Part shown: positions 23,974-26,768 of the stretch, one piece after another
Layout of the letters: every line of letters starts with the position of its first letter
How positions within the stretch are numbered: position 1 is the first letter of the stretch
Origin: Promethearchaeota archaeon
GTDB taxonomy: Archaea; Asgardarchaeota; Hermodarchaeia; Hermodarchaeales; Hermodarchaeaceae
Assembly (NCBI GenBank): GCA_048938385.1
Contig: JBHLMG010000003.1
Span: 85,190 to 128,752 of the forward strand
Reading direction: 5' to 3'
DNA: 43,563 nucleotides
The notes under the pieces: model-generated
Databases searched by the model: none
The model's input: the letters and a program-made list of their open reading frames with translations, nothing else
Told to the model about the DNA's origin: nothing
Translations under genes and position numbers: made by a program

Positions 23974-24019
23974 TATATTAGCGCGTTTGCGTTTTTGAAG
24001 GGTTCACAGGTTAAACTGT

Positions 24020-24034
24020 TCTCATATCGTGCGA
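24020..24034. promoter_or_regulatory. Putative operator, copy 1 (TCTCA-tatcg-TGCGA)
   Basis: Matches three further copies at 24876-24979; lies upstream of the wHTH gene. Confidence 0.6.
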
Positions 24035-24087
24035 CAGTAAGATTAAAATGCGTAAACAGAATATTTACCAATGAGAAAAACGAGCTG

Positions 24088-24750
24088 ATGTCTATGAGCT
24101 CCGAAGCAAAAAGCCAAGATGTTATTACTTTCACTCCTGAACGCATTAAAATCGTCCGGGATAAAAAAGAAATTGAAACCCTTTACGACCCCAATCATGG
24201 GCCAATCATTCGTGCTCTCCGAAAAGGGCCCATGACGGTGCGAGAACTAGAAAAAGCTTACGAAAAAGAAGCGAAAGATAAAGAAGACCTTGAAGCCAAA
24301 ACGGACAAAACCATTTATCGCTACCTCAAAGAGCTCAAGGCAGCAAACCTCGTTGTTGAAGCTGGAAAGCGCGTCGTCATCGGGAAAACCGCCACTGAAT
24401 CCCTCTTCTCCCGTACCGCTGAAGCCTTCATTGCCCATGACACAGATGAGGAGCACTGGAGCTGTGACGAAGGGAAAGCCCTTTGCGAAACGGTGGGGCT
24501 CATGCTAGCCAAATCCATGGGCAAAGACAAGCTTGACGAAAAATGTATGGAGCAATTCATGATCGATTTCGATAAAGAAGCCAGCAGGCAAACAGTCGCC
24601 GTCTTGGAAGGCGCGGACGAAAAACTCCTCGACCTGTTTGCCTCCATTGACTGGAAGCACAAAGACAAGGTTCTTTTCTATGTTGGCTGCTTATCCTCAA
24701 TTGTCCATAAACCCCAACTCATTGAGCAACTTCGGGCTTGCCTCAAATAG
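24088..24750 (+). CDS. Winged-helix (ArsR-like) transcriptional regulator with C-terminal helical domain
   Basis: IIRALRKGPMTVREL...KTIYRYLKELKAANLVVEAG...LFSRTA; ATG at 24088 or 24094 preferred over TTG 23995. Confidence 0.82.
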   Translation: MSMSSEAKSQDVITFTPERIKIVRDKKEIETLYDPNHGPIIRALRKGPMTVRELEKAYEKEAKDKEDLEAKTDKTIYRYLKELKAANLVVEAGKRVVIGKTATESLFSRTAEAFIAHDTDEEHWSCDEGKALCETVGLMLAKSMGKDKLDEKCMEQFMIDFDKEASRQTVAVLEGADEKLLDLFASIDWKHKDKVLFYVGCLSSIVHKPQLIEQLRACLK

Positions 24751-24875
24751 CCCGCTCCCCACCTCTTCTTCTTGAAAGCATTTTGCCTCTGTTTGCGTTT
24801 AACATCCGTTGGTTCTTCAATCGTGAGTAGGCGCTCTCTTTGGGGGTGTCAATAAGGTGTGCAGGGAGCCTTTTT

Positions 24876-24983
24876 TCGCTCGATGTGCGACAATTATTAT
24901 TCTATAATAAGGTAGTTTTCGCACACGATGAGAAATCTTTATATAGTTGTGTGCTATATACTGTTCTCAGCCCTTGCGAAAAC
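24876..24983 (+). promoter_or_regulatory. Promoter with three TCKCA-N5-TGMGA operator copies around a BRE/TATA (GAGAAATCTTTATATA)
   Basis: Copies at 24876-24890, 24919-24933 and 24965-24979; TATA-like TTTATATA at 24938-24945. Confidence 0.65.
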
Positions 24984-25008
24984 AAGGACATGATGTGGTG
25001 TAATAATA

Positions 25009-25131
25009 ATGTCAAAGAAGAAAATTAACTTCAGTCGGATCCCAGTGGTTGAACGAGCCGCACTCGGATGTCGGAATCCGACGGCTACACCAGGCCACCG
25101 ATTCGTCTTCACGCTCGTGACCTCTCGGTGA
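25009..25131 (+). CDS. Micro-ORF 1, 40 aa (MSKKKINFSRIPVVERAALGCRNPTATPGHRFVFTLVTSR)
   Basis: Translated by hand; SD-like GTGGTG at 24995-25000; directly downstream of the promoter. Confidence 0.4.
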   Translation: MSKKKINFSRIPVVERAALGCRNPTATPGHRFVFTLVTSR

Positions 25132-25179
25132 GGGACACGAAGAGCCGTAGAATACACATGATGAAAGTGGTGGAGAAAA

Positions 25180-25284
25180 ATGGAACAATGCAGTCTGATT
25201 CATCACCAAGAACGAATGAAAAATAAAACGCGCTACGCGGAATTGGCTTCGCAAGCTTACCTTATGCGAATCATTAACCGGTGA
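25180..25284 (+). CDS. Micro-ORF 2, 34 aa (MEQCSLIHHQERMKNKTRYAELASQAYLMRIINR)
   Basis: Translated by hand; SD-like GTGGTGGA at 25167-25174; helical, protein-like composition. Confidence 0.5.
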   Translation: MEQCSLIHHQERMKNKTRYAELASQAYLMRIINR

Positions 25285-25294
25285 TGATGGTACG

Positions 25295-25414
25295 ATGATG
25301 GGTCTTCTGGAACTCTACATCCTTGGTACCCTTCCGTTGCCCACAAGCAGTAGGTTCGAAAGCCATGATCGGCAGAACAAGGATGGAACGGTTTCAAACC
25401 TCTTGGTTCGCTAA
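25295..25414 (+). CDS. Micro-ORF 3, 39 aa (MMGLLELYILGTLPLPTSSRFESHDRQNKDGTVSNLLVR)
   Basis: Translated by hand; SD GGTGA at 25280-25284; lies almost entirely within the structured element, so may be incidental. Confidence 0.3.
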   Translation: MMGLLELYILGTLPLPTSSRFESHDRQNKDGTVSNLLVR

Positions 25415-25432
25415 GAGATTTCCAGAAGACCC
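25300..25432 (+). ncRNA. Unclassified structured RNA element (~133 nt)
   Basis: Perfect 13-bp closing stem, 8-bp inner stem, UUCG-capped hairpin; G-U pairs work on the + strand; followed by a pyrimidine tract. Confidence 0.55.
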
Positions 25433-25568
25433 TTCTTACTTCTCCTTTTAGTGCTTTTGTGGGGGTTGATGCAAAAGCTTTTTACATAGAGTGCGATTAT
25501 ATTCTTACCCTTGTAGAATATCTACGCGCACTGAGAGAACGAATCACACTTCCTAAGAGGTAATCTCC

Positions 25569-26768
25569 TTGAGTTCAAAAGTTTATTTTGGATCGATACA
25601 ACAAGGCCAAGACGCAGCCTTCGCTTCCCTAGCTGCGAAGTATGAAAAACTCCTCGAGCTTTTAGATTTCTCGACAATTAAGAAACAGGACAAAGTTGCC
25701 ATTAAAATGCACCTTGGGTTCCATGATGGCTACCAAACCGTGCCAGTCTTTTTCGTGCGACGACTTGTAAGGGCAGTGAAGAAATCGGGTGGGTGGCCCT
25801 TTGTTACCGATAACCCGACAGCCGTGTATAACGCCGCTGACCGTGGATATACGCCTGAGACTTGTGGTTGCCCTCTTATTCCAGTTGCTGGCGTAAAGGA
25901 TGGATATACGAAAAGCGTGAAAGTCGATTTCAAGAATGTTAGCCAACTCGAGATGGGTGGTGTCCTTAATGATGCTGATGTCCTGATCGATTTAACCCAC
26001 TCAAAGGGTCATGCGAACTGTGGCTATGGTGGTGCAGTGAAAAACATCGCCTTAGGAGGATATTCTGGACCTACTCGCTGGAACCGAATCCATGGAGTGG
26101 AGAATGCGTTTCCATGGTGGAATGCCAAAAAGTGTTCACCAGAACATGCGCAAAAACTCGTGGAAAGCTGCCCCTATAATGCCTTGTCATATGATAAAGA
26201 GAAGCACGAACTCCGAATCACGCGGTTTTCGTGTCATGTCGGAAACTGCACTGAATGCCTTAAAGTCGACAAAGATGTCAAGTGCTTGAATTTGCAGCCT
26301 GAGCAGTTTGAGGCGTTTCAAGAATTCATGGCGATCACAGCACACAATATCTTAGAAACCTTCGATGAAGAGAAGCGATTCTTCATAAATGTCGCCATAG
26401 ATATTACTCCCCATTGTGACTGCATGGGAATTATTCAACCCATCGTGGTTCCGCACATAGGCGTTCTTGCTAGTCGTGATATCGTAGCAATCGATCAAGC
26501 AACTTTAGATCTTATTGCTAAGGTAGGCTTGATTGAAAGCCAAATTCCTCTTTACTTCAAGCATGCGAACCTTGATCCTAAAGCAGATTTACATCCGTTC
26601 GCTCGATTGTGGGGACCGATGAAGAATCCCTATCTGGTCACCAAGCATGCTGAGAAACTGGGAATGGGCACACGAAAGTATGAACTGATCGAAGTCTTAT
26701 CTCCGGAAAAAACTTTGACAATGGAAAGACCTAAACAAGAGTTTGAACGAGCCCCCTCCTTCTACTAG
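25569..26768 (+). CDS. DUF362 family Fe-S protein
   Basis: KVAIKMHLG, LTHSKGH, GGAVKNIALG, Cys cluster, DITPHCDC, ASRDIVAIDQA. Confidence 0.88.
   Translation: MSSKVYFGSIQQGQDAAFASLAAKYEKLLELLDFSTIKKQDKVAIKMHLGFHDGYQTVPVFFVRRLVRAVKKSGGWPFVTDNPTAVYNAADRGYTPETCGCPLIPVAGVKDGYTKSVKVDFKNVSQLEMGGVLNDADVLIDLTHSKGHANCGYGGAVKNIALGGYSGPTRWNRIHGVENAFPWWNAKKCSPEHAQKLVESCPYNALSYDKEKHELRITRFSCHVGNCTECLKVDKDVKCLNLQPEQFEAFQEFMAITAHNILETFDEEKRFFINVAIDITPHCDCMGIIQPIVVPHIGVLASRDIVAIDQATLDLIAKVGLIESQIPLYFKHANLDPKADLHPFARLWGPMKNPYLVTKHAEKLGMGTRKYELIEVLSPEKTLTMERPKQEFERAPSFY

Follow-up and report, generated by a model that had tools for sequence, protein, structure and literature searches.

The Locus, Its Promoter and Its Micro-ORFs

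The window analyzed here is a 43,563-nt stretch of contig JBHLMG010000003.1 (positions 85,190 to 128,752, forward strand) from the assembly of a Promethearchaeota archaeon of the family Hermodarchaeaceae (GCA_048938385.1). Between a winged-helix regulator gene and a DUF362/Fe-S gene lies an 820-bp stretch without long ORFs, and within this stretch an element of about 135 bases is located at 25300-25432 on the plus strand. From the TATA box to the U-tract, about 630 nt can be aligned in nine loci that share one conserved architecture, in which the BRE/TATA block is followed by a small hairpin, a Shine-Dalgarno (SD) sequence with micro-ORF1, an SD-like leader with ORF2, a purine box (in the relatives), an ATGATG box, the element and the U-tract. 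The functional unit reaches upstream of 25300, and its features, together with the flanking genes, are as follows:

23995-24750: winged-helix regulator gene
24938-24945, plus strand: TATA box within a BRE/TATA block at about 24930-24947; TTTATAT invariant in the nine aligned loci
25009-25131, plus strand: micro-ORF1, encoding a 40-aa basic protein, with a GGTG-type SD upstream; coding periodicity
25180-25284, plus strand: ORF2, 34 codons, with an SD-like leader; start and leader conserved in the alignment
25284-25289, plus strand: ATGATG box, conserved in the orthologues
25300-25312, plus strand: 5′ strand of the 13-bp closing stem P1; three covarying pairs in 11 orthologues
25333-25339, plus strand: single-stranded motif TCCGTTG; invariant in 11 orthologues and in the paralogues behind a hydrolase gene
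25340-25364, plus strand: short hairpin region Pa, pairing either as CCCAC/GTAGG (25340-44/25350-54) or alternatively as 25353-64; conserved sequence
25372-25376, plus strand: 5′ strand of the inner helix Pb; four of six pairs covary among the orthologues
25399-25406, plus strand: pyrimidine-rich motif CCTCTTGG; invariant in the orthologues and in the behind-hydrolase paralogues
25407-25411, plus strand: 3′ strand of Pb; covariation of Pb
25420-25432, plus strand: 3′ strand of P1; covariation, inverted repeat I2
25433-25452, plus strand: pyrimidine/U-rich tract, a likely archaeal terminator; T-rich 3′ flank in 11 of 11 orthologues
25569-26768: DUF362/Fe-S gene

In the nine loci the TTTATAT block precedes the closing stem by about 360-395 nt, and it forms part of a stretch conserved in blastn comparisons. 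Around the TATA box, the imperfect 29-nt arms of an inverted repeat (24915-24983) adjoin the winged-helix regulator gene and are possible operator sites. Comparison of variability at the three codon positions separates the reading frames of the unit. Micro-ORF1 yields values of 0.38/0.22/0.80, a pattern of purifying selection on the protein by which this frame is judged truly coding, and the values of ORF2 (0.75/0.71/0.89) leave its coding status doubtful. The ATGATG box precedes the closing stem by 13-16 nt in the orthologues, or by 13-19 nt when G011, G012 and G013 are counted. In the window it overlaps the stop codon of ORF2, the frame that begins at 25284 ends after four codons, and a second copy is found at 25295-25300.

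A third micro-protein could in principle be encoded across the element itself, as the frame from 25295 runs for 39 codons without a stop in the window, and its counterparts in the relatives for 54 to over 65. This openness is a consequence of the pyrimidine-rich composition. The frame over the element displays no codon periodicity (0.63/0.64/0.74, as opposed to 0.38/0.22/0.80 for micro-ORF1), and the reading frame of the invariant nucleotides varies, with three frames among the species and another one in the window, which makes a third product extremely improbable and places the conservation at the RNA level.

Downstream of the element, a 9-bp hairpin followed by TTTTT (25453-25487) overlaps the palindromic AAAAGCTTTT in a promoter-like block of the DUF362 gene, and this block is conserved in three relatives in blastn comparisons. 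The distance from the element to the DUF362 gene amounts to 137 nt in the window and to as much as about 730 nt in relatives. The long spacer of about 730 nt is found in L005 (at 2400-2740) and in the same stretch of L003, L006, L007 and L011; its distal half shows good conservation and includes a frame that carries a degenerate, micro-protein-like motif (…ECRNPK…).

Fold, Covariation and Strand of the Element

The predicted minimum free energy of the plus strand is −51.9 kcal/mol (z = −3.7), and none of 200 shuffled sequences was equally stable. A repeat finder describes the terminal arms as a 20-nt inverted repeat (I2), 90% complementary, with 99 nt between the arms, and the two strands of P1 enclose an interior of 107 nt. 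The pairings proposed by an earlier sequence-only reading are all present in the sequence, namely the 13-bp stem 25300-12/25420-32, an 8-bp stem 25318-25/25378-85, a TGCC/GGCA pairing, hairpins at 25353-64 and 25400-17, and the pairing of CCGTT (25334-38) with AACGG (25387-91), as is the pyrimidine/T-rich tail at 25433-52. Orthologue comparison revealed that the closing stem is kept in the relatives, as is one inner helix (Pb) that uses a register different from the proposed one; for the inner stem of 8 bp, for the UUCG hairpin and for the CCGUU/AACGG pseudoknot, counterparts were not found there, and these helices are specific to the window, the UUCG hairpin having arisen by an insertion of 5 nt seen only in this species. 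The detailed three-way-junction model of that reading consequently had to be given up, most of its helices being without conservation.

Orthologues were identified with nhmmer and motif anchors, followed by a covariance model (R1), in 11 of the 14 species of the genus with scores of 90-139 bits, and all 11 are located upstream of the same DUF362 gene. In these sequences P1, Pa and Pb together are paired in 86.9% of cells, compared with 28-49% in slid registers. Across these Asgard homologues, for which the sequence-only reading had proposed a covariance model, seven compensatory pairs with changes on both sides were counted, three in P1 and four in Pb, a number reached by none of 500 shuffles. 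Four of the five Pb pairs form in the window (25372-76/25407-11). Pa displays no covariation in the 11 orthologues, nor does any covariation among them choose between its CCCAC/GTAGG and 25353-64 pairings. The invariant parts in the 11 orthologues are the closing stem, TCCGTTG, GTAGG with the ensuing conserved AAGCC-like segment (both within 25340-25364) and CCTCTTGG, which resembles an anti-SD sequence; TCCGTTG is also retained in L040 and L041. These results characterize the element as a probable conserved structured RNA, the covariation support being moderate because the comparison comprises only 11 closely related sequences.

A natural variant is encountered in two genomes, G002 and G006 (L010:1189-1322 and L012:1188-1321, minus strand), in which the syntenic element keeps P1 and Pb and has lost all three invariant motifs. 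It would be useful for testing the role of these motifs.

The 13-bp terminal inverted repeats could also point to a selfish, MITE-like mobile element or, with the U-tract directly after them, to a mere elaborate terminator hairpin. Each genome has related elements at two or three loci, and one paralogue occupies a different context in two species, both of which are in keeping with such an origin. There is nevertheless only one copy of each type in a genome, its syntenic slot is the same from species to species, and target-site duplications are lacking; the invariant internal single-stranded motifs together with the compensatory changes argue for selection on the fold beyond the needs of a terminator. 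Archaeal termination, moreover, requires only a U-tract and no hairpin. We therefore consider a selfish or purely terminating element quite improbable. The MITE proper, offered as an alternative by the sequence-only reading, was rejected: the search for further copies and target-site duplications found a single copy in the 2.48-Mb assembly (89.8% complete), in a syntenic position conserved in 11 species, and no target-site duplications.

The fold by itself would favor the opposite strand, as the minus-strand structure is the more stable of the two (−57.8 kcal/mol, z = −4.9). Nor do the wobble pairs decide the strand, since within the conserved helices the cells with a plus-strand-only pairing (G-U, 14) are not more numerous than the cells with a minus-strand-only pairing (A-C, 17). 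The plus-strand assignment of the sequence-only reading was right, although its argument from the G-U pairs fails and its reasoning from the UUCG loop found no support. A functional RNA read from the minus strand could draw on the slight excess of A-C cells, on the stability of its fold and on a minus-strand T-run at 25218-29. This T-run is, however, not conserved, whereas in 11 of 11 orthologues the 18 nt of the plus-side 3′ flank include 8-13 T, compared with 4-7 on the other strand. The element is also co-oriented with the conserved promoter and with the coding micro-ORF1, and one of its paralogues directly adjoins the stop of a gene with the same orientation. From the promoter to the end of the element, runs of at least four T are absent in eight of the nine aligned loci, the sole exception being one T4 within the 3′ strand of P1 in L003, and the first T-runs appear 5-25 nt past the end of the element. 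The plus strand is thus supported by the T-rich flank, by co-orientation with the promoter and the coding ORF, and by the near-absence of internal T-runs, and a minus-strand RNA is considered very unlikely.

Upstream of the element, a purine box (GAGGGG-like) located 36 nt before P1 is the best complement of CCTCTTGG in 8 of 10 relatives, and several lineages possess a complementary box pair of their own between the upstream region and the interior of the element. A helix between the purine box and CCTCTTGG would cross P1 and thus create a pseudoknot. This pairing is formed in 70.7% of cells with one covarying pair, and the duplex energies of cognate and non-cognate combinations are close (−23.3 vs. 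−21.4 kcal/mol), so that it is to be regarded as only suggestive. The window lacks the upstream purine box; here CCTCTTGG is masked by a local complement at 25411-17 (hairpin 25400-17), which is consistent with, and no proof of, a need to keep this motif paired. Complements of CCTCTTGG number 102 in the genome, with no clear association or enrichment near start codons.

Such pairing could also operate as a cis switch, in which the SD-like purine box and ATGATG would constitute an initiation site sequestered by the pyrimidine motif of the element, controlling ribosome loading on a non-conserved frame or read-through into the DUF362 gene. The fixed position of the box at −36 and its complementarity to CCTCTTGG, the existence of lineage-specific complementary boxes, the conservation of ATGATG at SD-like spacing and a frame from ATGATG that is open through the element in relatives would all accord with this mechanism. 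It is difficult to reconcile with the window, which has no purine box and whose homologous ATG opens only four codons, or with the behind-hydrolase paralogue, which carries neither purine box nor ATGATG. The DUF362 gene, in addition, is 137 to about 730 nt away and has its own conserved promoter-like block, and the covariation of the purine-box pairing is weak. A switch of this type is therefore considered unlikely.

Paralogues, Family Range and Known RNA Classes

Besides the orthologues, R1 detects weaker matches of 25-46 bits at a second and a third locus in most genomes of the genus. One type of paralogue is hydrolase-linked and situated 7-24 nt past the stop codon of a co-oriented gene for a membrane-anchored protein of the beta-lactamase fold. 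It has a nearly invariant core of about 50 nt in common with the element, is closed by a stem of about 20 bp, carries a U-tail, and was not found by blastn in the organism’s own genome. Its purine box and ATGATG are lacking, as noted above, and its position behind a hydrolase gene shows that a micro-protein gene in cis is not strictly required by the RNA. At L032:1501-1642 (minus strand) and ten similar loci, this paralogue measures about 140-155 nt and carries repeated UUGGA and UCCAA segments with alternative pairings possible.

The second type has the same P1 sequence and follows a paralogue of micro-ORF1; in the own genome it lies on contig C27 at 25387-25498. The surrounding region (C27:25203-25500) comprises the micro-protein paralogue and then the element with the same closing-stem sequence and a purine-rich interior. 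A third micro-protein paralogue of this genome (C5:35949-36089, L102) precedes a 9-bp stem and a U-run with GTAGG- and CGTTG-like strings. In all 15 further micro-protein loci inspected, from both genera of the class, a GC-rich stem structure accompanied by a U-run lies downstream of the stop codon, and one locus of the sister genus has the same P1. Four loci of the sister genus (L088, L089, L090 and L091) carry a hairpin loop with an SD-like AGGGUGU at most about 150 nt after the micro-protein stop. A purine-rich motif of the GAGGG type recurs in most element types of the class. The genes downstream differ among the paralogues and include DUF362, a methyltransferase and a convergent regulator.

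The micro-protein family is defined by the motif ERA..GC.NP...P....SR (alignment A5) and was detected in 18 of 19 genomes of the class, mostly in two to six copies per genome, and was not detected in any of the 114 other Asgard genomes sampled at a completeness of at least 85%. The few members called in public records are annotated as ‘hypothetical protein’, in three NCBI MAG clusters (Thor-, Hermod- or Promethearchaeota). The protein has no Pfam match, and the ESM Atlas offered no leads above chance. An AlphaFold model consists of two helices at low confidence (pLDDT 61.5), and with such a model and no Pfam family, RNA binding by the micro-protein is unsupported.

The RNA itself does not correspond to a catalogued family. 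Rfam 15, whose families include cuckoo/ar14-type sRNAs, gave no match at gathering thresholds in the whole window and none on six related loci, a search of 24800-25700 at E up to 10 returned two irrelevant sub-threshold matches only, and ARAGORN identified no tRNA or tmRNA genes in the window. That the element matches no tRNA, 5S, SRP, RNase P or riboswitch consensus, as the sequence-only reading had judged, was thus borne out, and the known Rfam family that would have removed its novelty was not found. The exact core pattern, searched over 400 Asgard genomes, occurs in the home genus only, apart from chance-level matches; a metagenome pattern scan returned at least 120 stretches, and none of the 80 loci listed matches the covariance model. 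As far as searched, the element appears to represent an RNA family that is absent from the catalogues and limited to a single small class of Asgard archaea.

Several specific candidates were rejected individually. A divergent 5S, SRP or RNase P RNA was discarded, as canonical copies are present on other contigs at high scores, and the genome’s own SRP RNA bears no resemblance to the element. A box C/D sRNA is defined by a C box (RUGAUGA) near the 5′ end and a D box (CUGA) near the 3′ end, which form a k-turn; a UGAUG-containing box is conserved upstream, but CUGA follows the 3′ strand in no orthologue. One short loop string, which we take to resemble the P4 loop of twister, suggested a twister-like reading that was dropped for want of partner motifs or covariance-model matches. 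A CcsR or ‘cuckoo’ sRNA was likewise rejected: the CCUCCUCCC loop motif is absent, the invariant motif differs, and the neighboring gene has no DUF1127 or other Pfam match.

A new class of ligand-sensing riboswitch or self-cleaving ribozyme would be in line with the multi-helix fold, the invariant junction and loop nucleotides, the possible pseudoknot topology and the proximity of a terminator. No Rfam riboswitch or ribozyme matches at E up to 10, however, and the family does not extend beyond one genus or class, unlike most aptamers, which have a wide distribution. The downstream genes vary among the paralogues, as described above, and the element is positioned behind coding regions instead of ahead of them. 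Little probability is therefore assigned to this class of RNA.

Proposed Function and Comparison with Known Systems

Taken together, the rival explanations are all less supported than the reading in which the element is the structured 3′-terminal domain of a plus-strand micro-protein transcript of about 490 nt and belongs to an uncatalogued, class-restricted RNA family, a reading to which we give a somewhat better than even chance. The architecture of the unit is consistent with a 3′-UTR element or a 3′-derived sRNA, and ‘novel ncRNA or 3′-UTR element’, as the locus had been labeled from the sequence, was the right category. The transcript would start at the conserved promoter near 24938, encode the basic micro-protein of 40 aa, perhaps along with another very small ORF, and end at the U-rich tract directly after the closing stem. 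Elements of this family would likewise close micro-protein transcripts and, in one paralogue, a hydrolase transcript.

By clamping both ends, P1 could, together with the U-tail, give a nuclease-resistant RNA, which would persist either as the 3′ UTR or as an sRNA processed out of it. The unpaired invariant motifs TCCGTTG, GTAGG and CCTCTTGG may then serve as contact sites for a partner acting in trans, putatively the co-encoded basic micro-protein or purine-rich SD-like sequences, with the pyrimidine motif normally masked by a complementary purine segment. To our knowledge, very few structured RNAs other than housekeeping ones have been described from Asgard archaea, the prokaryotes most closely related to eukaryotes. 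The present RNA family has several members, is supported by covariation and is linked to a micro-protein family that likewise lacks annotation, both partners being overlooked by routine annotation (Rfam, Pfam and gene callers). It thereby offers a concrete and testable way into post-transcriptional regulation and small-protein biology in this lineage.

Among catalogued RNAs, 5S rRNA, the SRP Alu domain, twister and hammerhead ribozymes, and three-way-junction riboswitches are alike in size and in the topology of a closing stem plus branches, but no covariance model of these matches the element at E up to 10. Intrinsic terminator hairpins and REP-type 3′ stabilizers are similar in placing a GC-rich stem and then a U-tract at the end of a gene. 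The element differs from them in its 107-nt interior, its invariant motifs, its covarying inner helix and its occurrence as a syntenic single copy. The bacterial sRNAs that are released from the 3′ UTRs of mRNAs, such as GlnZ (PMC9731577), resemble the proposed RNA in lying at the 3′ terminus of a coding RNA, whose terminator they share. Such sRNAs are typically short, Hfq-dependent and composed of a seed plus terminator, whereas the element is about 135 nt long, multi-branched, possibly pseudoknotted and archaeal.

The nearest described layout is that of CcaF1, a small DUF1127 protein, and the CcsR ‘cuckoo’ 3′-UTR sRNAs of Alphaproteobacteria, in which tandem simple hairpins with CCUCCUCCC loops adjoin the DUF1127 gene (PMC8034643). 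As proposed for the present locus, a gene for a small basic protein is followed by structured RNA in the same transcript; in both systems the RNA carries pyrimidine-rich anti-SD-like motifs, and the loci are duplicated within genomes with some RNA copies detached from the protein gene (PMC8034643). The two are not related by sequence or profile (neither Rfam nor Pfam gives a match), and they differ in structure, tandem hairpins as opposed to one large multi-helix domain with a 13-bp closing stem, and in the host, which here is an archaeon. Membership is accordingly excluded, and the likeness would be one of functional logic only. More tentatively, and on balance rather doubtfully, a class-specific Asgard RNP or regulatory system can be envisaged, in which basic micro-proteins of 40-50 aa and co-transcribed, pseudoknotted 3′ RNAs would act on ribosomes or mRNA translation through SD/anti-SD mimicry. 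If true, archaea would have evolved, independently, a counterpart to small-protein/sRNA pairs of the CcaF1-CcsR kind.
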